From Candidatus Sumerlaeia bacterium (GTDB taxonomy: Bacteria > Sumerlaeota > Sumerlaeia > SLMS01 > JAHLLQ01), in the NCBI GenBank assembly GCA_028284075.1, contig JANQSL010000070.1, forward strand, positions 41,480 to 105,479: a DNA stretch of 64,000 nucleotides, written 5' to 3'. Both the position numbers and the translations under genes were made by a program. This document shows positions 4,528 to 15,257 of this stretch, in pieces (position 1 is the first letter of the stretch; the number at the start of each line of letters is the position of its first letter). The notes under the pieces were generated by a model that ran no database searches, had not been told where the DNA came from, and worked only from the letters and a program-made list of their open reading frames with translations.

Positions 4528-6561
4528 ATGGCTGAACTGGAACGCAAAGTCAGAGAAATCAGACGTCGACTGATGTGGTTTCTTTTTGCCGAGCTGGCCA
4601 GCCGAACTCTGTTGGCCTCTCTTTTCCTGGCCGTTTTGTACCTCCTTGCCTCGCGGTTGATGGCCATTCCGGCTGAGCCCCTTATTGTGACCGCGGCCCT
4701 TCTAGCTGGAGCCATTGTTTCCGCGGCCGTCTGGACATGGGTGCGCCGGGTCGACAATATCAAGGCCGCCCTCGCCGCTGATGAAACCCTGGGGCTTGGC
4801 GAGCGCCTCTCCAGCGCTTTGCTGCTCAGGGACTTTCGCGATTCCACCGGTGCAGTTGCCGCTCTTGAAAGTGACGCTGTGCGTCATGCCTCGGCAATCG
4901 ACCCGGGCCGCGACTTCAAGTTCCGCGTCCCTCGCCTTTTTAAGCATCTGGTCTGGCCACTTGGTGTCTTCGCTATCATGTATCTCGCTTTGCCTCAGAT
5001 GAACCTCCTTGCAAAGACAGGGGAGGATCAGGACCAGGAGCAGACTGCCGAGGAGCAGAAGGCAACAGAGCGGGTGCGTCAGAGCGAGGCGCGCAAGATT
5101 CGCGAGCTGGCAAAGGAGGCACAGAAGGTCGACGAGGAGGCGAAAGTCGCTGAAGCCGGCAAATTTGCCAGGGAGCTGGAGCGTCTGAGTGAGGACCTTT
5201 ATCTCGGCACAAAGGATCGCAAGGCGGTGGCTGCGGAGTTGTCGCGTCTAGAGGATTCCGTGAAGTTGCAGAAGCAGAGCCTCGAGCGTAAAACCGAACC
5301 CTTCAAACAGATTTCCGGTCTCAGGCGCGCGGAGAAGACTCGCGGCCTTCAACAGTCCTTGAAGGATCAGTCCTTCGAGGATGCCGCGGCACAAATGATG
5401 AATCTGGCGCAGCAGCAGCTCTCTCAAATGAATGCCAATGATACGCAGCAGCTCGCGGAGGAGATGCAAAATCTCGCCGATGAGGTGAAGGAAAACGAGC
5501 AAATGGCGGATGCTCTGAAGCAGACGGCTGACGCACTCGAACAGCTTGCTCAGGAAAAACACCAGCAGGAACAGGCAGAACAGGCTCAGCAACAGCAGCA
5601 GGGTCAGCAGGGCCAACAAGGACAGCAGGGCAATCCACAGCAACAGCAGGGTGCGCAATCAGGTCAGCAGCAGGCTCAGTCGGGTCAGCAACCGAACAAC
5701 CAGCAACAGGGGGGCAGCCCACAGGCTCAGACGGCTCAGCAGGGACAGTCACAGCAACAGCAGCAGGCGGGCTCTTCCGGTGCACAGCAGCAGGCTCAAC
5801 AGGCAATGCAGAACGCGGCTCAGCAGATGCAACAGCAGCAGGAGTTGATGCAGCAGATGGCGCAATTGGACCAGCTTGCACAGCAAATGAACAATACCCA
5901 GTCGTCCATGTTAAACCAGGAAGGCCAGCAGGCGGGTCAGGGTGGCCAGAATCAACAAGGCCAGCAGAACCAGAGCGGCAGCGAGGGCCAGGGTCAGCAG
6001 CAAGGTCAGCAGCAAAACGGTAGCGGCCAGGGTCAACAGGGCCAGGGTCAGCAGCAGGGGGGGACCCAACCGGGGGGTCAGCAGGGTTCCGGTCAACAAC
6101 AGGGTCAACAGCCCGGCGGTCAGTCAGGGTCACAGCAGAGCTCGCAACAAGGGCAGGGCCAGGGTCAGGGTCAGGGGCAAGGCCAGGGGAGTGGCAACAA
6201 TCCCAACAATAGCCCCAACCAGGGTCAGTGGAGTCAGGGGCAGCCGCAGTCTTCCGGGGGCGGGAGCGGTCAGGCGGGTCGAGGCCGGGGAGGACAGCCA
6301 CCGGATGCGGGGCTTGTGGATACTCAGTTTGTCGACGAAATGATTCGCGGTGAAAAAAATGAGGGTGAGATTCTGGCGGTGATTGAAATCGATGCACCGG
6401 CAGTGAAAGGCGAATCGAACGTTCGCTATCGTCAGATTTATAACAGCCAGGCTCAGAAGGCCGCTGATGCAATGAAACAGAACGAAATCCCGTTGGGTTA
6501 TCGCAATAAAGTCCGCGATTACTTCCGGGCGATTAATCCCGAAAAGAGCGCGGAGCCCTGA
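4528..6561 (+). CDS. membrane protein with N-terminal double TM anchor, coiled-coil region and a ~250-aa Q/G/S-rich low-complexity domain
   Basis: ATG preceded by GAGGAG 8 nt upstream. Two hydrophobic helices at residues ~17-70. Charged heptad-like segment (res 160-340), then a poly-Q/G tract, then a non-repetitive C-terminal ~70 aa. The first gene of a same-strand, tightly packed gene run. Confidence 0.6.
   Translation: MAELERKVREIRRRLMWFLFAELASRTLLASLFLAVLYLLASRLMAIPAEPLIVTAALLAGAIVSAAVWTWVRRVDNIKAALAADETLGLGERLSSALLLRDFRDSTGAVAALESDAVRHASAIDPGRDFKFRVPRLFKHLVWPLGVFAIMYLALPQMNLLAKTGEDQDQEQTAEEQKATERVRQSEARKIRELAKEAQKVDEEAKVAEAGKFARELERLSEDLYLGTKDRKAVAAELSRLEDSVKLQKQSLERKTEPFKQISGLRRAEKTRGLQQSLKDQSFEDAAAQMMNLAQQQLSQMNANDTQQLAEEMQNLADEVKENEQMADALKQTADALEQLAQEKHQQEQAEQAQQQQQGQQGQQGQQGNPQQQQGAQSGQQQAQSGQQPNNQQQGGSPQAQTAQQGQSQQQQQAGSSGAQQQAQQAMQNAAQQMQQQQELMQQMAQLDQLAQQMNNTQSSMLNQEGQQAGQGGQNQQGQQNQSGSEGQGQQQGQQQNGSGQGQQGQGQQQGGTQPGGQQGSGQQQGQQPGGQSGSQQSSQQGQGQGQGQGQGQGSGNNPNNSPNQGQWSQGQPQSSGGGSGQAGRGRGGQPPDAGLVDTQFVDEMIRGEKNEGEILAVIEIDAPAVKGESNVRYRQIYNSQAQKAADAMKQNEIPLGYRNKVRDYFRAINPEKSAEP
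5560..6310. repeat. CAG/CAA/GGN-rich low-complexity DNA tract encoding the poly-Q/G domain
   Basis: Direct reading: reiterated cagcagggtcag / ggccagggtcag units, e.g. (GGNCAR)n at 6161-6200 encoding GQGQGQGQGQ. Generates long shadow ORFs on the opposite strand. Confidence 0.7.
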
Positions 6562-6642
6562 CGGCGAAGCGGCAGGGAGAGGAAAACCGCGGGACGGCGC
6601 GGGCGGGTTGTAAAGAAAGCGCCATTCCGGTGGGTTGAACGT

Positions 6643-7602
6643 GTGAATCGGATCGGAATTCTGACAGCATCTGCTCTGGCAACCATGGCTTGCTTTTTTG
6701 TTGGCTGCGGGAATTCCGTGGAGTCCGGGGGTGCACGGGTGATTGGCGCCGTTGGCCGGCAGCCAGGTCAGTTTGCCAAGCCTCGCGCTGTGGCTTTTGC
6801 ACAAGACAACTCTCTGTATGTGATTGATCGTAGTGGCCGGATTCAGATCATGGATTCTGAAACCGGCGAGTTTATCAGCAAATGGAACCTGCCGGGCTGG
6901 TCCAATGGAACGCCCACGGGTATCACTGTCGACAATGATGGAGAGTCGCTCTGGGTTGCTGACACGCACTATCAGCAAATTCTACATTACGACCGCGATG
7001 GCAATATTCTGACGCAATGGGGCGAGGACGGCACCGATCCCGGGCAGATGATTTTTCCGACGGATGTCTGTCCCGATCCTGACGGGCGGACCGTTTGGGT
7101 GACCGAGTACGGTCAGCGCAGCCGCATCATGCAGTTTACCCGCGACGGCGAATTCGTCCGCGAGTGGGGGAGCGGCGTTTATGAGTACAGCGATCTGCAA
7201 CGCCCGATGGCGATCGCCGTTTCGGACGACGGCAGCATCTTCGTTGCGGACGCGGGTAATCATCGCATTCTGATCTTCGACCGCGACCTTGGGTTGAGAG
7301 CAACCTGGGGTGAACCGGGAGAGGAGCCGGGCCAGTTGAAGTATCCCTACGATATTGCATTCGCGCCCGATGGCACTCTCTACGTTTGCGAATACGGGAC
7401 CAGTCGTGTGAGTCGCTTCACTGCGGACGGGGATTTTCTCGGCCTTTGGGGAGGTCCGGGTCATGATGCGGGACGCCTCTACTCACCCTGGGGCGTGGCG
7501 ATTGCGCCGAACGGTTTTGTTGCGGTGGCCGATACAAACAACGGACGGATTCAGATTATCGAGCAACCAGAGCGGCGATTCAATTCGGGAGGATCCGCTT
7601 AG
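6643..7602 (+). CDS. NHL-repeat beta-propeller lipoprotein
   Basis: GTG start. Lipoprotein-type signal with FVGC lipobox. Repeated NHL-like blades (e.g. IAVSDDGSIFVADAGNHRILIFD; VAIAPNGFVAVADTNNGRIQIIE). Confidence 0.7.
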   Translation: MNRIGILTASALATMACFFVGCGNSVESGGARVIGAVGRQPGQFAKPRAVAFAQDNSLYVIDRSGRIQIMDSETGEFISKWNLPGWSNGTPTGITVDNDGESLWVADTHYQQILHYDRDGNILTQWGEDGTDPGQMIFPTDVCPDPDGRTVWVTEYGQRSRIMQFTRDGEFVREWGSGVYEYSDLQRPMAIAVSDDGSIFVADAGNHRILIFDRDLGLRATWGEPGEEPGQLKYPYDIAFAPDGTLYVCEYGTSRVSRFTADGDFLGLWGGPGHDAGRLYSPWGVAIAPNGFVAVADTNNGRIQIIEQPERRFNSGGSA

Positions 7603-10535
7603 TGGACATTCACGCCGCGCGTCCTGAGTACCTTTGGCTGCTCCTGTTGATTCCTGTCGTGCTCTATGCCTCGCGCAGCCTCCGCAGTGTCGAGTCCGGT
7701 CGTCGTGTCTTCATCATCGGGTTGCGGACGTTGATTGTTTTGCTGCTGATTCTTGCACTGTCGAAGCTCGAAGTTGCCCGCCGCAGCCGTGATCTGACCG
7801 TTTACTACCTTCTTGATCAGTCCGATTCCGTTCCGCCCCATTTACAGGAAGCGGCCGTGGGGCTTGTTCAGTCAATGAGCAGGGAGAAGCAACGAGACGA
7901 CGAAGCCGGTCTGATCGCTTTTGGTGGCAATGCTTCCATCGAGTCACTTGCAATCAACACCTTTGAGTTCGACGGCCGCATCAATTCCGTTATCGACGGC
8001 GTACGTACCGATATCTCTTCGGCCGTGAGGCTCGCCCTCAGTGCATTTCCCAACAACCGAATGAAGCGCATTGTGCTTTTGACGGATGGGAACGAAAACA
8101 GTGGCAGTGCGGTCGAAGTTGCACGCCTTGCCCGTAACAACAATGTTCCGATCGATGTTGTGCCGCTCCGCTACGATCAGCGTGCGGATGTGCAGATCGA
8201 CAAGCTTATCGTTCCACAGCGGACGACAAAGGATGCTCCTTTTGATGTAAAGGTCTTCCTGTCATCGGAATCAGATGTTAATGGGCGGCTTCGCCTTTAT
8301 CGAGACGGCCAGCTGATCGTCGATCAGGATGTTGATGTGACCGCCGGGAGGAACGCACCGCTTGTTCTGCCACAGCGTCTGGACGACGGTGGTTTTCACC
8401 GTTACAGCGCTGAGATCGAAGTCGCTGGTGATGAACGTCCTCAGAACAACCGGGCTCGAGGCTTCACTCATCTCAAGGCGGAGCCCCGTGTTCTTTACGT
8501 CGAAGGGGACCAGACAAGCACCAATTTTCTCTATCCCGCCCTCGAGCTGGAGGACATTCGGGTCACGTTTGCCGATCCGAACGAGATTCCGCTGAACATC
8601 GAGGAACTGCAAGACTACGACAGCGTCATCCTTTCGAATGTCCATGCAAATGAGATGACGTACGATCAGATGACAATGATCGAACGTGCCGTGCACGATC
8701 TCGGTCTGGGCTTCATCATGATCGGCGGAGAGAACAGCTACGGAGCCGGTGGTTATCAGGATTCGCCCATTGAAAAGGCGCTTCCCGTATCCATGGATGT
8801 GAAGCAAAAGAAGGTTTTGCCCAACGGTGCACTGGTGATCGTGCTCCATACCTGTGAAATTCCCCAGGGGAATTCGTGGGCGCGTGAGATCAGCATTGCC
8901 GCCCTTAACGTTTTATCCTCCCAGGACTATTTCGGTTTGCTGTACTACGGCGCAAAGCAGGGCATCGGAGCCGGGGGTGGAATGGGAGGATGGGGTGAGC
9001 ACTGGCTCTGGGATCCGGGGCTGCAGATGACGGGTGACAAGCGCGCCATGCGGGCAAAGATTCGAGGCGTGCAGCCTCTCGACATGCCCACGTTCGACCC
9101 GACGCTTCAGCTTGCTTACGACGGGTTGAAGGACGTCAAAACAGAAGCAAAGCACATCGTCGTGATTTCCGATGGCGATCCGGCTCCGCCCAATCAGCAG
9201 CTTGTCAACGCGATCCGCGATGAAGGGATTACGGTGTCAACCATCGCTATTGCCCCGCACCACGGTCAGACAGTGGAAACGCTACAGGACATGGCTTACT
9301 GGGGTGCCGGTAACTTCTATTATCCGAAGACGTCGCGGGAGCTTCCCCGCATATTCGTCAAGGAAGCCTCGATTGTTCGCAGATCACTGATTTTCGAAGA
9401 GCCCTTTTTCCCAAAGTATGACACTTATTCAGAGGTTCTTGAAGGTCTACAGGGGATGCCGCAGCTCGACGGATATGTTGTCACCTCCGACAAGGAGCTC
9501 GCGACCATTCCGTTGCGCACGGAAAAGGACGATCCGCTGCTGGCGCACTGGCGATACGGTCTTGGCAAGACCGTGGCGTTTACAAGTGATGCAAAGAACA
9601 AGTGGGCTTCCGCATGGGTGGACTGGGACGGGTACGGGAAATTCTGGAGCCAGGTCGTGCGCTGGTCTCTGCGGGAAACCAGCAGCAATAACCTTCAGGT
9701 GAATACTGAACTGCAGGGCGGCAAGGGTATCATCACCGTCGATGCCGTCGATATCGACGGCAACTTCGAGAACTTTCTCGATTTCAACACCACCGTTCTC
9801 TCTCCCGAACTTGAACCGATGGACGTTGAGGTTCGCCAGGTTGGTCCGGGACGTTACCAGGGAACCTTTGATGCCACGGACGTTGGCACGTACATGGTGC
9901 GGTTGTCTTCCGGTGAGGGGGATCAACAGCAGAATGTGGTGACGGGTGCATCGCTTTCCTATTCGCCCGAGTACGAAGCGGCGCGTTCGAATGACGAGTT
10001 TCTGGAGAAAATCGCGAAGGAATCCGGAGGCCGCATTGCCGGTTCTCAGGATTACAGCGCATTCGATCGACGGGATCTGCGAGCGACGAATCGTCCCAAG
10101 CCGGTCTGGGAATGGCTGCTTCTCGCAGGCCTCCTCCTGGTGCCGGTCGATGTGTTCGTTCGTCGCGTGTATCTTGATTGGGGCGAACTGGCAACCGCGT
10201 TGGCAAAGCCGTTCAGAAAGACGGCACCCGCGGAGCGTACCGAAGCGATGGGGTCGTTGATGGCAGCCAAGAAACGTGCAACCTCCTCGAAAGAGGAAGA
10301 CCGGGAGCGCGACGATGCACGGCGCGAATTCCGTGAACGTTTGCAACAGAACGAACCTCAGGCTGGTGAAGAAGGTTCTGTTTTCGATGCAGCAGATCAG
10401 AGCGGGCGTCAGGCGCCCGCCCGTCATCGTGAGAAACAGACCTACAGTGCCAGCGACGGCCCTCAGCGGACTGGCGGCGGAAGCAGTCTGTCAGAACTCA
10501 AGCGCGCCAAACAACGCGCCCGGAAGAAGATGTAG
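7602..10535 (+). CDS. BatA-like membrane protein: N-terminal double-TM (aerotolerance-regulator N-terminal type) + VWA domain + large extracytoplasmic region + C-terminal TM
   Basis: GTG start overlapping the upstream stop (TAGTG). Two N-terminal TM helices. VWA MIDAS motif LDQSDSV, with a second VWA-like block HIVVISDGDPAPP. C-terminal hydrophobic helix followed by a charged tail. Confidence 0.7.
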   Translation: MDIHAARPEYLWLLLLIPVVLYASRSLRSVESGRRVFIIGLRTLIVLLLILALSKLEVARRSRDLTVYYLLDQSDSVPPHLQEAAVGLVQSMSREKQRDDEAGLIAFGGNASIESLAINTFEFDGRINSVIDGVRTDISSAVRLALSAFPNNRMKRIVLLTDGNENSGSAVEVARLARNNNVPIDVVPLRYDQRADVQIDKLIVPQRTTKDAPFDVKVFLSSESDVNGRLRLYRDGQLIVDQDVDVTAGRNAPLVLPQRLDDGGFHRYSAEIEVAGDERPQNNRARGFTHLKAEPRVLYVEGDQTSTNFLYPALELEDIRVTFADPNEIPLNIEELQDYDSVILSNVHANEMTYDQMTMIERAVHDLGLGFIMIGGENSYGAGGYQDSPIEKALPVSMDVKQKKVLPNGALVIVLHTCEIPQGNSWAREISIAALNVLSSQDYFGLLYYGAKQGIGAGGGMGGWGEHWLWDPGLQMTGDKRAMRAKIRGVQPLDMPTFDPTLQLAYDGLKDVKTEAKHIVVISDGDPAPPNQQLVNAIRDEGITVSTIAIAPHHGQTVETLQDMAYWGAGNFYYPKTSRELPRIFVKEASIVRRSLIFEEPFFPKYDTYSEVLEGLQGMPQLDGYVVTSDKELATIPLRTEKDDPLLAHWRYGLGKTVAFTSDAKNKWASAWVDWDGYGKFWSQVVRWSLRETSSNNLQVNTELQGGKGIITVDAVDIDGNFENFLDFNTTVLSPELEPMDVEVRQVGPGRYQGTFDATDVGTYMVRLSSGEGDQQQNVVTGASLSYSPEYEAARSNDEFLEKIAKESGGRIAGSQDYSAFDRRDLRATNRPKPVWEWLLLAGLLLVPVDVFVRRVYLDWGELATALAKPFRKTAPAERTEAMGSLMAAKKRATSSKEEDRERDDARREFRERLQQNEPQAGEEGSVFDAADQSGRQAPARHREKQTYSASDGPQRTGGGSSLSELKRAKQRARKKM

Positions 10536-10537
10536 TC

Positions 10538-11425
10538 ATGGGTAATGACTGGAGAAACAAGGTCATCCTTGGCGATAATTTGCCGGTCCTCCGTGGGATG
10601 GAAGACGAGTCGATCAATCTGATCTATATTGATCCTCCGTTCAATACGGGAAAAGCCCAGCGTCGCGATCGCATCAAGTCAGTGGCATCGGAAAACGGGA
10701 CCCGCAGCGGATTTGCCGGGAAAAAGTACGATGCGGTACGCCTTGGTTCCCACGCCTGGTGCGATCGCTTTGACGACTATTACGCATTTTTGCGTCCGCG
10801 GCTGGAGGAGGCTCATCGCCTTTTGAAGAGGACAGGAACGATGTATTTTCACATCGATTATCGCGAAGTGCATTATTGCAAGATTCTCCTGGACGAGATT
10901 TTCGGAAGAGACTGCTTTCTCAATGAGATTGTTTGGGCGTACGACTATGGTGCGCGGACGAAACGGCGTTTTCCACCAAAGCATGACAATATTCTGGTTT
11001 ATGTGAAGGACCCGAAGAACTACGCCTTCTATTCCGAGCAGATTGATCGCATACCCTATATGGCGCCGGCACTCGCGGGGCCCGAGAAGGCAGCACGGGG
11101 AAAGCTCCCCACGGATGTATGGTGGCACACAATCGTTTCACCAACGGGGAAGGAAAAAACCGGCTGGCCGACACAAAAGCCACTGGGCGTTTTGCGCCGC
11201 ATTATTGCCGCCTCCTCTCAAGAGGGAGATTTGGTTATGGATTTCTTCGGAGGTAGCGGAACCACGGGAGTGGCGGCGGCTGAAACCGGCCGAAGGTTTA
11301 TCCTCGTGGATGAAAGCCTCGAGGCATTCGAGCTTATGAAAGAGCGTTTTGCCGGAGTGGAGAACATTCAGTTCGTAAACCCCAAAGGAAGCACGACTGC
11401 GAAAAGGAGCACCCATCATGGCTGA
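10538..11425 (+). CDS. DNA methyltransferase, beta-class N6A/N4C family (PF01555-like), orphan
   Basis: Motif IV IYIDPPFN precedes motif I FFGGSGTT, with PTQKP between them, which is the beta-class order. Starts 3 nt after the upstream stop and overlaps the MoxR start by 8 nt. Confidence 0.8.
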   Translation: MGNDWRNKVILGDNLPVLRGMEDESINLIYIDPPFNTGKAQRRDRIKSVASENGTRSGFAGKKYDAVRLGSHAWCDRFDDYYAFLRPRLEEAHRLLKRTGTMYFHIDYREVHYCKILLDEIFGRDCFLNEIVWAYDYGARTKRRFPPKHDNILVYVKDPKNYAFYSEQIDRIPYMAPALAGPEKAARGKLPTDVWWHTIVSPTGKEKTGWPTQKPLGVLRRIIAASSQEGDLVMDFFGGSGTTGVAAAETGRRFILVDESLEAFELMKERFAGVENIQFVNPKGSTTAKRSTHHG

Positions 11426-12425
11426 CATGCAGCAGCTCGCCGCCGAGTTCCGCCAGGAGTTCGACGCCGTTTATAACGAAATTCAGAAGGTGATTGTCGG
11501 TACCGATAATGTCATCGAAGGCGTGTTGATGTGCCTCTTCTCCGGCGGCAACGTGCTGCTCGAAGGTGTCCCGGGTCTCGGCAAGACAATGCTGATTCGC
11601 ACGTTGGGAGAGGTGCTCGATTTGCCTTTCTCGCGCATTCAGTTTACTCCGGATCTGATGCCTGCCGATATCATCGGTACAAACATCGTGCAGGAGGACC
11701 CTGAAACCGGTCGTCGTGATTTCCAGTTTGTGCATGGTCCGCTTTTTTCAAATCTCGTGCTTGCGGATGAAATCAATCGTGCGACACCGAAGACGCAGTC
11801 GGCGATGCTCGAAGCCATGCAGGAGAAGCGCATTACCGCTGCAGGCACGACGCACGAACTGGATCAGCCGTTCTTTGTCATGGCGACACAAAACCCGCTG
11901 GAGATGGAAGGCACGTATCCATTGCCGGAGGCACAGCTGGATCGTTTTCTTTTCAAGCTGATGGTGAATTTTCCGAATCGCGGTGAGCTGAATGAAATTA
12001 TCAATCGCACCACCAGTGCGGAAATGCCACGAGTGTCCCGGGTCATGAACAAGGAGCGCCTTTTGCACTGGATGAATTTCGTGCGCAGTATTGTGGTCGC
12101 TCCTCATGTTCAGGACTATGCCGTTCGCCTGCTTCTCTCGACTCATCCCGAAAGTGAGTACGCCACTGACATGGTGAAACGTTATGTCCGTTTCGGCGCA
12201 TCGCCACGTGGTGCTCAGGCTTTGATTCTGACAGGCAAGATCAAGGCTCTCCGCGCCGAGCGCTATAATGTGGCCTTTGGCGACATTGGTGCCGTGGCGA
12301 CAAACACTCTTCGTCACCGCTTGATTCTCAATTTTGAAGGTGAAGCGGAAGGGGTCACTGCAGACATGGTGATAGAGGATTTGTTGAAGAACGTTCCTCG
12401 TGAGGCGGAAATGGCGGCAAGATAA
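11418..12425 (+). CDS. MoxR-like AAA+ ATPase
   Basis: Walker A GVPGLGKT and Walker B LADEINRA with the typical MoxR length. AAGGAG RBS upstream. Confidence 0.85.
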   Translation: MADMQQLAAEFRQEFDAVYNEIQKVIVGTDNVIEGVLMCLFSGGNVLLEGVPGLGKTMLIRTLGEVLDLPFSRIQFTPDLMPADIIGTNIVQEDPETGRRDFQFVHGPLFSNLVLADEINRATPKTQSAMLEAMQEKRITAAGTTHELDQPFFVMATQNPLEMEGTYPLPEAQLDRFLFKLMVNFPNRGELNEIINRTTSAEMPRVSRVMNKERLLHWMNFVRSIVVAPHVQDYAVRLLLSTHPESEYATDMVKRYVRFGASPRGAQALILTGKIKALRAERYNVAFGDIGAVATNTLRHRLILNFEGEAEGVTADMVIEDLLKNVPREAEMAAR

Positions 12426-12477
12426 TCGTGTCGGCGGGCGCACGAAGGCGAAGCTGGAAATGCCGGAAAAGGACTGA

Positions 12478-13383
12478 ATGGCATACATGGCCACGGCCGA
12501 ACTGAAAACACTGTTGGAACCGGAACTGCTGGCACGCCTCGATCAGCTTGAGGTGTTGACTCACCGTGTGTTTCGGGGGCGGCAAAAGGGCGAAAGGCGG
12601 TCACGCAAGAAGGGGCAGTCCGTCGAGTTTGCCGATTATCGCGAATACGTTCCGGGAGACGACACGCGTTATCTCGACTGGAATATTTTTGGACGTCTTG
12701 AGCGTCTTTACATCAAGCTTTTCCTCGAGGAAGAGGATCTTGCCTTTTATGTTATTGTCGATTCGTCCGCATCGATGAACTATGGTCATCCGGTGACGAA
12801 GTTTGAGTATGCACGGAAACTGGCAGCGGCACTGGGATATGTCGCGCTGAAAAATCAGGACAAGGTTGGAGTCAGCGACGCCAAGGAGCGTGTTGTTTCC
12901 CGCTTTCGTCCGGCGCGCGGCAAAGCACAGCTCACTAAAATGCTCAACTACCTGATGACGCTGGAGCCGGGGGACCGAACGAACCTGATCGAATCCTGTC
13001 GTGACTTCGTGTTTCAGAATACACAGGCTGGCATCGTCGTTTTGATCAGTGATTTTCTGGACGAGCGTGGATATGAGGACGCGCTGAAGCACTTCTTCAT
13101 GCGCAATTACGAGGTGTACTGCATTCAGGTTCTCAGCTCGGAGGAAAGGGATCCGACACAGCTTGGTCACCTGGAGCTCGTCGATGCCGAGACGGGAGAG
13201 AGGCAGGAAGTTACTGCAAGTGATGCATTGATCAGGCAGTACAAACAAACCGTTGAAACATTCTGCGGGGGACTAAGGGACTGGTGCACGTCCCACGGCA
13301 TGACCTATCTGGCGGCCACGACGGATCTTGGTGTTGATCAGATGCTGCTCAGTTACCTGCGTCAGAGGGGGCTGCTGCGGTGA
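12478..13383 (+). CDS. DUF58 domain protein (VWA-like partner of MoxR)
   Basis: DUF58 signature VEFADYREYVPGDDTRYLDWNIFGR...VIVDSSASM. Confidence 0.8.
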   Translation: MAYMATAELKTLLEPELLARLDQLEVLTHRVFRGRQKGERRSRKKGQSVEFADYREYVPGDDTRYLDWNIFGRLERLYIKLFLEEEDLAFYVIVDSSASMNYGHPVTKFEYARKLAAALGYVALKNQDKVGVSDAKERVVSRFRPARGKAQLTKMLNYLMTLEPGDRTNLIESCRDFVFQNTQAGIVVLISDFLDERGYEDALKHFFMRNYEVYCIQVLSSEERDPTQLGHLELVDAETGERQEVTASDALIRQYKQTVETFCGGLRDWCTSHGMTYLAATTDLGVDQMLLSYLRQRGLLR

Positions 13384-15257
13384 CGTTCCTCCAAAGCCTT
13401 TGGTGGGCTGGTCTCTTTTCACTCCTTCCTCTGATCGTCGTGATGTATCTGCTGAAGCTGAAGCGGAAGCGTGTTATCATTCCATCCACGCTGCTGTGGC
13501 GACGATCCGTGCAGGATCTTGTCGCAAACGCCCCGTTTCAGAAACTGCGAAACAACCTCCTACTGTGGCTGCAACTTCTGTTTTTGGCACTTCTGATTCT
13601 GGCGTTTTTACGTCCTGTGATGAAGCTGGAAAGCCAGGCAGGCACGACATTGATTCTGCTGATCGACAATTCCGCCTCGATGCAGACAATGGAAGGTACG
13701 CGAACTCGCCTCGAAGCGGCAAAACTCGCCGCCAGAGAGTCCATCGAGACGCTTTCAAACCGGGATGAGGCGATTATCGTTACCTTCAGCGATCGTACAA
13801 ACATCGTTCAAACACTGACCAGCGATCGTGCCCTGCTGGAAGCAGCTCTCGAGTCCATTGAAGCGCGCGATGTTGAGACTTCTCTCTCAGAAGCGGGTCT
13901 GATTCTTCAAAGTCTGACCTCCACCGTGGATGCGGAGGGCGCCCGGTTACCACGCGAAGATACCAAAACGATTATCCTGAGCGATGGTGTTGTCAACGAT
14001 CTGGCATCGCTATCAGACGTACCCAATGTCGAGTATGTGCGGATCGGTGAAACGGCGGATAATCTCGGCATAACCGGCCTGGATGTCCGAGAGTCGTTCA
14101 GTGATACGGTGGAGTATCAGATTTTTGCATCTGTTACAAACTCAGGTGAGGAAGAGCAGGAAGCGTTTGTTGAATTACAGGTCGACGGAGAGGTTCTTGA
14201 CTTGAAGTCGGTTACCGTTCCGGCCGGCAATACGGAAGCGGTGGTTTTTTCAACAGCGGAAGTTGAGGAAGGCATTGCCACCGTTCGGCTGGACTATAAG
14301 GACGATTTTCCCCTGGACAACAGCGTTGTCGCGCAAATCGTCCCGCCGGGTGAGATTGATGTGTTGCTTGTAACCACCGGGAACGCTTTTCTTGAGGAAG
14401 TGTTCTCTATCGATCCCAGAGTTCGAACAAGCATCATTCGTCCGACGGACTACACGCCGCGGGAGGACTATGATATTGTTGTCTTCGACAACTGTGAAAC
14501 CGGTGAAATCCCCGCCGGCAACTTTCTTTTTATCAATGCACTTCCACCTGTTTCCGGTTTCAAGTCTGGTGAAGAGGCAAGTGTCGATAATCCTGAGGTT
14601 ATCGACTGGAATCGCGTTCATCCCCTGACTCGATTCGCCAACTTTGAGGAGGTTCTCATCGGTAACGCGATCGTGTACGAAACACCACGATCAGCCCTGC
14701 ATATTCTGGAGGCCGTTGAGACGGATCTGATTACTCTCTATGAAACGGAGACGCAGCATGTCGTGGTCATTGGATTCGACATTTTCAAGTCTTACTGGCC
14801 CCTTGATGTCTCGTTTCCGATCTTCATGTCGAATCTGATCGAGTATTTCGCGGAACTGAGTCAGGCGGGCTTTCGCCCTGTCTACCACACGGGTCAGACA
14901 ATTCCCATCTACCCTGGCGACGAAGACCAGGTTGCGATCGTCAAGACCCCTTCCGGAAAAACGGTGGAGTTTTCCTTTGAGGGAATCAGCACCGCCTATC
15001 TGACGGAAACCTCCGAGGCGGGCATGTATGAAATCGATTTCGACAAGAGCCCGGATCGTGCGCTGCCGGTTAACCTGTTAAGCATGGACGAATCGAAGAT
15101 CGCTCCACAGGACGAGATCAATATCGGTGGGCGGGAAATTGTCGGTACGGGAGAAGTCATCAAAACGAATCAGGAAGTCTGGCACTGGTTTGCCCTCGCC
15201 GCTCTGCTGATCATGCTTGTGGAATGGCTTATCTACTGCAAGCGAACGTTTATGTAG
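13380..15257 (+). CDS. BatA-like VWA membrane protein (N-terminal double TM + VWA + C-terminal TM)
   Basis: GTG start overlapping the DUF58 stop (GTGA). N-terminal LWWAGLFSLLPLIVVMYLL...IPSTLLW motif of BatA N-domains. MIDAS LIDNSASM. C-terminal helix WHWFALAALLIMLVEWLIY. Confidence 0.75.
   Translation: MTFLQSLWWAGLFSLLPLIVVMYLLKLKRKRVIIPSTLLWRRSVQDLVANAPFQKLRNNLLLWLQLLFLALLILAFLRPVMKLESQAGTTLILLIDNSASMQTMEGTRTRLEAAKLAARESIETLSNRDEAIIVTFSDRTNIVQTLTSDRALLEAALESIEARDVETSLSEAGLILQSLTSTVDAEGARLPREDTKTIILSDGVVNDLASLSDVPNVEYVRIGETADNLGITGLDVRESFSDTVEYQIFASVTNSGEEEQEAFVELQVDGEVLDLKSVTVPAGNTEAVVFSTAEVEEGIATVRLDYKDDFPLDNSVVAQIVPPGEIDVLLVTTGNAFLEEVFSIDPRVRTSIIRPTDYTPREDYDIVVFDNCETGEIPAGNFLFINALPPVSGFKSGEEASVDNPEVIDWNRVHPLTRFANFEEVLIGNAIVYETPRSALHILEAVETDLITLYETETQHVVVIGFDIFKSYWPLDVSFPIFMSNLIEYFAELSQAGFRPVYHTGQTIPIYPGDEDQVAIVKTPSGKTVEFSFEGISTAYLTETSEAGMYEIDFDKSPDRALPVNLLSMDESKIAPQDEINIGGREIVGTGEVIKTNQEVWHWFALAALLIMLVEWLIYCKRTFM

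Follow-up and report, generated by a model that had tools for sequence, protein, structure and literature searches.

A methylase gene within a MoxR/VWA operon

The window, by which we mean the whole 64-kb stretch of DNA that was analysed, carries a forward-strand operon of seven genes. It begins with a Q-rich protein of 677 aa (4528-6561) that has no Pfam match, and continues with an NHL-repeat beta-propeller protein (6643-7602; PF01436, E = 3.4e-33), which keeps its syntenic position in most of the 80 genome loci compared below. The third gene (7602-10535) encodes a membrane protein of 977 aa, here called VWA977, in which Pfam recognizes a VWA and a GATase1_like domain (PF07090) and which has orthologues in all 80 loci. 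It is followed by the gene of interest, a beta-class DNA methyltransferase of 295 aa (10538-11425; ATG at 10538-10540, stop codon TGA at 11423-11425). Downstream lie a MoxR AAA+ ATPase of the AAA_3 type (11418-12425; PF07726, E = 6.5e-62), a DUF58 protein (12478-13383; PF01882, E = 2.4e-43) and a 625-aa protein with a BatA N-terminal domain and a VWA domain, BatA625 (13380-15257; PF07584 and PF13519). A preliminary description of this DNA, made from the sequence, had labelled the 977-aa protein BatA-like; it is a VWA protein, but the Pfam BatA N-terminal domain sits in the 625-aa protein.

Both junctions of the methylase gene are tight. Upstream (10533-10540, forward strand), the TAG stop codon of the 977-aa gene (10533-10535) is separated from the methylase ATG by a spacer of two nucleotides (TC). 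The preliminary description had placed the start 3 nt after the stop, which is right as to the closeness of the junction but not as to the spacer, since the third base is the A of the ATG. Downstream (11404-11425, forward strand), the Shine-Dalgarno sequence of MoxR, AAGGAG at 11404-11409, falls within the coding region of the methylase. The MoxR ATG at 11418, read from the sequence, overlaps the 3' end of the methylase gene by 8 nt (ATGGCTGA), as had been reported. An identical overlap of methylase end and MoxR start (ATGGCTGA) is found in the related locus L002, and the spacer between VWA977 and the methylase measures 2 nt in L002 and L011 and 5 nt in L004. Promoter- or terminator-like sites are not in excess at the methylase junctions, and no direct or inverted repeats were found to flank the insertion; on these grounds we rejected the idea that the junctions bear signals of mobile-element insertion. 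The preliminary description had proposed that the methylase is co-transcribed with the operon, and we agree that the tight packing can reasonably be read in this way only. Translation of the methylase is probably coupled to that of the operon as well. Tight gene packing alone, however, should not be taken as functional coupling.

The protein is a beta-class DNA methylase with probable N6-adenine specificity

Pfam PF01555 (N6_N4_Mtase) matches the methylase with E = 5.4e-49 and 167.5 bits, against a cut-off of 26.7 bits, over profile positions 1-221 of 221. The catalytic motif IV, DPPF (gat cct ccg ttc; 10631-10642, forward strand; residues 32-35), lies N-terminal to the AdoMet-binding motif I, DFFGGSGTTG (11240-11269, forward strand; residues 235-244), whose core FFGGSG occupies residues 236-241. 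This is the circularly permuted order of the beta class. In an alignment of 25 family members, D32, P33, P34 and F35 of motif IV and D235, F236, F237, G239, S240 and G241 of motif I are invariant. The PADLOC model MTase_II PDLC03300, a Type II model derived from REBASE, matches the protein over its full length at 451 bits. The original assignment, a 295-aa PF01555-type DNA methylase with DPPF before FxGxG, is thus borne out by the Pfam score and the motif positions. We also considered a methyltransferase acting on something other than DNA, an outcome that the preliminary description had named as fatal to its own reading. Weak matches to RsmD (Cons_hypoth95), MTS and TRM5 span only the common AdoMet motif, and we dropped this candidate because the PF01555 match and the restriction-modification (R-M) homology described below favour a DNA methylase.

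Motif IV begins with Asp in N6-adenine and with Ser in N4-cytosine methylases, although the rule is not absolute. Among solved structures, the best relatives are N6-adenine enzymes, namely M.RsrI (E = 6e-23), CcrM, MboIIA and Type III Mod, whereas N4-cytosine enzymes score far weaker and match only the C-terminal third of the protein. The DPPF motif and the nearest solved relatives together indicate that the methylase is probably N6-adenine specific.

By sequence, the nearest solved structure is that of M.RsrI, an N6-adenine methylase of GAATTC (PDB 1EG2/1NW5). The two enzymes have the beta-class order, DPP[YF] and FxGxG in common and can be aligned over residues 74-260. Unlike M.RsrI, the window methylase has an insert of about 40 residues after motif IV, which resembles Type III Mod and YhdJ-type enzymes. 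The relationship is distant, and the specificity of the window methylase is almost certainly different. The best NCBIfam match is YhdJ (PRK11524), but the score stays below the equivalog threshold of that model (NF008572/PRK11524; 133 bits in two matched stretches against 292), as it does for the CcrM equivalog (NF050803; 85.8 bits against 830 needed).

A solitary relative of a restriction-modification family

At least 8000 database proteins match the methylase, so that it cannot be a chance open reading frame; the best 120 of these are 62-100% identical. Source names of family members include Chloroflexi/Anaerolineae, Thermanaerothrix, Bellilinea and Armatimonadetes, and identity across phyla within the family amounts to 60-70%. 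Mean column identity in the 25-sequence alignment is 68%, the region between the motifs, presumed to recognize the target, included. Such conservation between the motifs suggests that one specificity is common to the family.

We then surveyed the neighbours of family members in 80 metagenome and 80 IMG/VR loci, in which immediate neighbours were called and clustered. This revealed one large recurrent cluster, a protein of 182-210 aa encoded directly downstream on the same strand and often overlapping the methylase gene. It matches the PADLOC model REase_II PDLC03515 over its full length, with E values down to 7e-64, and bears a D...ExK motif of the PD-(D/E)XK type. A tblastn search detected this endonuclease in 11/57 metagenome and 4/78 IMG/VR loci with at least 650 bp of downstream sequence. 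In all 15 positive loci it follows the methylase immediately and on the same strand, never at a distance, while about 80% of family members have no such gene within several kb. The members with a downstream endonuclease are 60-65% identical to the window methylase and are spread over the whole methylase tree. As homologues at this level of identity are ordinary Type II R-M methylases, the window methylase belongs with this R-M family as a solitary relative and is no new type of enzyme. It resembles the methylases of the PDLC03300/PDLC03515 systems in length, motif order and presumed target-recognition region, but differs from those pairs in being followed by moxR, with the 8-nt overlap, and not by an endonuclease.

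Further searches with the endonuclease gave little. Its profile found nothing in the PDB, it had no significant match in NCBIfam, and nothing was found in the plasmid collection. A search of 5.8 billion proteins returned 2114 relatives, every one with the source name 'hypothetical protein'. To look for the recognition site, ratios of observed to expected counts of all 4- and 6-bp palindromes were calculated for the Sumerlaeota loci, for 17 endonuclease-positive loci (106 kb) and for 142 endonuclease-negative loci (1.29 Mb). The positive set, in which taxa are mixed and contigs short, showed no specific depletion of any palindrome. A possible lead to the site comes from the literature: four Chloroflexi MAGs have TTAA methylation, and an orphan methylase with 64% similarity to TTAA enzymes was described in the same study (Hiraoka et al. 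2022, PMC8919816); none of our conclusions rests on it.

The preliminary description had stated that no restriction or defence gene lies nearby, which our searches confirm. PADLOC detected no endonuclease or defence gene among the 42 other ORFs of the window, giving two low-significance matches to unrelated models, and seven sequences of the family's cognate endonuclease, used as tblastn queries, had no match in the 64 kb. The same type of endonuclease (PDLC03515) was likewise not detected by tblastn in the loci L002, L004, L010 and L011. By Pfam, the content of these other ORFs is metabolic (dihydropyrimidine dehydrogenase-like protein, amidohydrolases, aldehyde dehydrogenase, xanthine-dehydrogenase-type subunits, BipA, gamma-glutamyltranspeptidase and others). 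The window therefore contains no complete Type II R-M system, with an endonuclease next to the methylase, and the methylase is solitary within 64 kb. An ordinary R-M system, the other outcome that had been said to undo the preliminary description, is found in part: close homologues at 60-65% identity do have a downstream endonuclease, but the window has none.

The operon is conserved across phyla without the methylase

The synteny check proposed in the preliminary description was carried out on one genome per GTDB species. These genomes were scanned with an alignment of the VWA977 protein, which yielded 80 loci; each of the seven window proteins was then used as a tblastn query against them. 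In 53 of the 80 loci VWA977 is present with moxR after it, and the junction counts below are based on these. Homologues of VWA977 are found in Candidatus Sumerlaeota/Sumerlaeia down to about 45% identity and then in Planctomycetota, Hydrogenedentota, Omnitrophota and others. The order NHL-VWA977-MoxR-DUF58-BatA625 is kept in 53 genomes of Sumerlaeota, Planctomycetota, Hydrogenedentota and other phyla, and in 40 of the 53 VWA977 and moxR are directly adjacent (less than 450 bp apart, with a median near 60 bp).

The methylase occupies this junction in four lineages only. To the window, L002/L010 (GCA_021772755.1) is 89% identical in VWA977 and 80% in the methylase, L004 is 79% and 75% identical, and L011 is 70% and 64% identical. 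Two of these (L010 and L011) belong to the 53 GTDB-representative clusters, while the window and L004 come from other sources; the operon stands without the methylase in about 49 of 53 orthologous clusters. The identity matrix of VWA977 unites the window, L010 and L004 in one clade, ((window, L010), L004), with (L011, L026) as its sister. In the nearest outgroups (L026, L012, L014, L015, L016 and L018), tblastn found no methylase at the junction. When co-occurrence with the cluster across lineages is taken as the mark of an integral component, the methylase does not qualify. The NHL-VWA-MoxR-DUF58-BatA module is deeply conserved without it across several phyla. The preliminary description, by which Bat-type MoxR/VWA operons are not known to contain DNA-modifying enzymes, is supported in that orthologous operons normally have none.

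The operon has MoxR of the AAA_3 type, DUF58 and BatA-N plus VWA proteins in common with Bat-type operons (the bat loci of Bacteroides and Leptospira; MoxR-proper). Unlike these, the PVC/Sumerlaeota operon adds the NHL propeller, the 977-aa VWA and GATase1_like protein and the Q-rich protein. As a lineage-specific insert, the methylase falls outside the conserved set.

The VWA977-moxR junction takes in unrelated genes

Inserted genes are present at 13 of the 53 VWA977-moxR junctions, co-oriented with the operon and tightly packed. Two of them are the methylase (L010) and a methylase-caspase fusion (L011). The other eleven include a gene for a 23S-rRNA-IVP four-helix bundle (L026), PDDEXK_3 genes (L038 and L082), two Uma2 genes (L058), an Rce1-like gene (L023) and several hypothetical ORFs. 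Several inserts share a few bases with the stop codon of VWA977, which indicates that tight packing is general to insertions at this site. The junction thus repeatedly takes in small stand-alone genes in other lineages, and given the variety of inserts at the operon's junctions, the methylase is one of many unrelated hitch-hikers.

The gene at the junction of L011 encodes a fusion of 681 aa, composed of a methylase domain, a Peptidase_C14 caspase domain and a C-terminal region. Its GC3 of 0.43-0.49 is foreign to flanks of 0.86-0.88, which points to a recent import that is not part of the MoxR module. A neighbour-joining tree places the L011 methylase weakly with the window clade, at 63-65% identity. 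Because the L011 methylase is foreign in composition and fused to a caspase, the history of the junction must be more complex than one gain, and we do not claim a single acquisition that covers L011, since its GC3 points to recent import despite the grouping in the tree.

At the MoxR-DUF58 junction, nucleotidyltransferase-like ORFs were seen in L002 and L026.

The methylase is an old resident under purifying selection

GC3 of the methylase is 0.595, 0.878 and 0.952 in three genomes of the clade, whose host GC3 is about 0.60, 0.90 and 0.95. Methylase identities to the window (80% and 75%) drop alongside those of VWA977 (89% and 79%). The comparison of the window with L002 gives a methylase dN of 0.12, with saturation at synonymous sites. 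For L002 against L004, dN/dS is 0.23 in the methylase, 0.27 in VWA977 and 0.33 in the NHL gene; overall, dN/dS of the methylase is 0.05-0.23, similar to that of neighbouring genes. The host-like composition and neighbour-like dN/dS mark the methylase of the window, L002/L010 and L004 as an old, vertically inherited resident on which purifying selection acts.

In plasmid and phage collections, the best matches to the methylase are only 31-37% identical, and at these identities we see no sign of a recent mobile source such as a plasmid or phage. IMG/VR holds family members that are up to 65% identical; many of their contigs are very long, and their viral nature is putative.

Most family members elsewhere are solitary too and have housekeeping neighbours, such as transketolase, transaldolase, aminotransferases, pyruvate kinase, HtrA and argininosuccinate synthase. 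In five loci a solitary methylase lies between transketolase and transaldolase, separated from them by gaps of 1-85 nt or overlapping by 1 nt. Across these loci the methylase is 69-82% identical, and the flanking enzymes 64-83% and 55-79%, so that its conservation equals or exceeds theirs. These loci represent a second, independent case of long-term lodging in a housekeeping operon. Solitary methylases homologous to R-M components are common in general: 3966 were counted in 2342 chromosomes, and most were argued to have arrived by horizontal transfer and not by loss of the endonuclease in situ (Oliveira et al. 2014, PMC4176335).

Discussion

We consider it likely that the gene at 10538-11425 encodes an intact and active solitary methylase of the Type II, beta-class kind, with N6-adenine as its likely target, and that it is an old passenger in the MoxR/VWA operon, with no part in the MoxR/VWA machinery. 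A solitary copy from a large family would have entered the short stretch that separates moxR from the VWA/GATase1-like gene, at a point ancestral to a small Sumerlaeota subclade; a partner endonuclease would have been lost, or never have been present. From then on it would have been inherited vertically, taken on the base composition of the host and been held by purifying selection. As the junctions offer no room for signals of its own, the methylase would be expressed by read-through transcription of the operon, with probable translational coupling. Its product may methylate a single short motif of fixed sequence wherever this occurs on the chromosome. What the cell gains could be standing protection from a widely circulating cognate endonuclease, or an epigenetic or housekeeping role acquired later. 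The strong conservation of solitary copies suggests a positive function that the word 'passenger' does not cover.

A stronger version of such a role is that the methylase has been domesticated in the Sumerlaeota subclade as an epigenetic regulator, with a Dam- or CcrM-like part in gene regulation or in the timing of replication or repair. The preliminary description had also raised a regulatory methylase, and on this reading the placement in the operon would tie the level of methylation to expression of the MoxR operon. We regard it as possible, though tentatively so. Like Dam, CcrM and E. coli YhdJ, the window methylase stands alone with no adjacent endonuclease, is inherited vertically and is under purifying selection, on a par with its housekeeping neighbours and with a composition that is fully host-like. 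The solitary copy in the independent transketolase/transaldolase lineage, which is more conserved than the enzymes that flank it, argues in the same direction, as do the solitary copies among housekeeping genes in many contexts and the high column identity of the family, presumed target-recognition region included. Unlike Dam, CcrM and YhdJ, however, the methylase is narrow and patchy in its phylum, with sister Sumerlaeota (L026, L012, L014, L015, L016 and L018) lacking it at the junction, and it scores below the CcrM and YhdJ equivalog cut-offs. Moreover, the interspersed family members that are linked to an endonuclease fit protection against a circulating enzyme equally well.

Two linked ideas go further, and we think them rather doubtful. 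The first is that the VWA977-moxR junction is a specific, recurrent landing site for selfish or defence genes, which would cover the methylase, the methylase-caspase fusion, PDDEXK_3, Uma2 and IVP. The second is that the family as a whole is a domesticated orphan that spans phyla. If true, it would constitute an undescribed Dam/CcrM-like epigenetic system of Chloroflexota, Armatimonadota and Sumerlaeota, and obligatory co-expression in MoxR/VWA or transketolase/transaldolase operons would couple genome methylation to core physiology.

It is unlikely that the methylase is the protective half of a split R-M system whose cognate endonuclease lies elsewhere in the genome. Complete R-M pairs do exist within the family, split systems are known (discussed in PMC4176335), and our inspection covered 64 kb of the genome, from a MAG contig of 112 kb. 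Yet the endonuclease is immediately downstream, and never distant, wherever it was found in the family (15/15 loci), neither the window nor the four Sumerlaeota loci contain a match to it, and about four-fifths of family members do without one within several kb.

The preliminary description had further suggested that the MoxR-VWA module belongs to the NTP-dependent conflict systems. The marks of this class are an ATPase of the bpMoxR type, architectural variability, displacement of effectors, a patchy distribution and a third component of the VMAP, iSTAND or FtsH type (Kaur, Burroughs, Iyer and Aravind 2020, PMC7159879), and a methylase is not mentioned among the MoxR-vWA ternary conflict systems of that study. 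Like these systems, the window brings together MoxR, vWA and beta-propeller proteins, and its ATPase has a weak match to bpMoxR (PF20030). Unlike them, the cluster has no VMAP, iSTAND or FtsH component and no variable array of effectors, its architecture is fixed and its phyletic spread is broad. The bpMoxR cross-match amounts to 42 bits against 208 bits for the classical AAA_3, and PADLOC gave no matches for the six operon proteins other than the methylase. The suggestion is therefore not supported for the module, with its fixed order in 53 genomes from several phyla. That the methylase is a functional part of such a system, its DNA methylation marking self or serving as sensor or effector, is very improbable: the tight translational embedding, the bpMoxR match, the NHL beta-propeller and the L011 fusion with a caspase domain, of a kind typical among the effectors of conflict systems, speak for it, but the module lacks the methylase in about 49/53 clusters and keeps a fixed order, the opposite of the marks named above (PMC7159879), the methylase family turns up in a wide range of unrelated contexts, and the L011 fusion is a recent import of foreign composition.

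The presence of a methylase within a MoxR/VWA operon thus does not make the operon a defence or conflict system. Read as an old solitary passenger, the window methylase belongs to a family that is unusually conserved and whose solitary copies are long-lived in housekeeping operons of at least two unrelated lineages. In view of this conservation and persistence, the family can reasonably be regarded as a candidate functional orphan methylase of phyla that have been little studied. Part of the remaining interest lies in the methylase-caspase fusion of L011.

Genes inserted at the operon junctions

The spacer between the gene for the 977-aa VWA/GATase1-like protein (VWA977) and moxR, in which the window carries its solitary methylase, is occupied by inserted genes in 13 of the 53 genomes that conserve the operon. 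The methylase accounts for the inserts at L010, from the window's subclade, and at L011, from the sister group. Among the others are genes for a 23S-rRNA-IVP protein (L026:12054-12488), PDDEXK_3 proteins (L038:11915-12322 and L082:12018-12401), two Uma2 copies (L058:12090-13395) and an Rce1-like protein (L023:11907-12755), as well as hypothetical ORFs. The inserts share the orientation of the operon and frequently overlap the upstream stop codon. This spacer looks like a site of repeated insertion.

At L011 (JASGMJ010000010.1, a Candidatus Sumerlaeota MAG), the junction holds a single ORF of 681 aa (L011:11952-13997), in which a caspase domain (Peptidase_C14, E = 5e-17) is joined to the methylase domain; beyond the two lies an extra C-terminal region of about 150 aa. 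GC3 of this ORF is 0.43-0.49, far below the 0.86-0.88 of the genes on either side, and the fusion is therefore a foreign gene that was recently acquired.

Small lineage-specific ORFs are also found at the MoxR/DUF58 junction of two loci (L002:9909-10527 and L026:13578-14054). They resemble nucleotidyltransferases (DUF2204/DUF6036/NTP_transf_5) and match AbiEii weakly; their GC3 of 0.72-0.74 is below that of the operon (about 0.91).

The methylase family in other contexts

In another lineage, a solitary methylase of the same family is flanked by transketolase and transaldolase (L007:5987-10008, and likewise L091, L092, L105 and L153), separated from these neighbours by gaps of 1-85 nt or overlapping them by 1 nt. 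Identity across these loci is 69-82% for the methylase, 64-83% for transketolase and 55-79% for transaldolase; the solitary methylase is at least as conserved as the two enzymes that flank it.

At a further locus of the family, an uninterrupted 503-aa ORF (L120:1023-2534) covers both the methylase and its cognate PD-(D/E)XK endonuclease; this could be a true fusion of the two enzymes or an error of sequencing or assembly.

Base composition and other proteins of the window

GC3 is near 0.60 in the window lineage (window 6643-15257) compared with 0.88-0.95 in its closest relatives L002 and L004, whose proteins are 89% and 79% identical, respectively. This difference is a large and recent compositional shift, as a result of which synonymous distances are saturated although the proteins remain close. 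CTAG is strongly depleted in the pooled DNA of the window, L010, L004 and L011 (112 kb; 18 observed against 56 expected, O/E 0.32), while its O/E in mixed metagenome loci is far higher (0.77-0.78).

The first gene of the cluster (window 4528-6561, + strand) encodes a 677-aa protein for which Pfam and NCBIfam searches returned no match. The protein has a membrane segment at its N terminus and a stretch that resembles a coiled coil, and its low-complexity core, about 300 aa long, is nearly all Q, G, S and N; relatives retain both ends but not the repeat. AT skew within this gene reaches 0.49 (window 5400-6300). Of the 42 window ORFs outside 4528-15257, one gives a match to the animal haem peroxidase family (PF03098, E = 8e-152), whose members are uncommon among bacteria.
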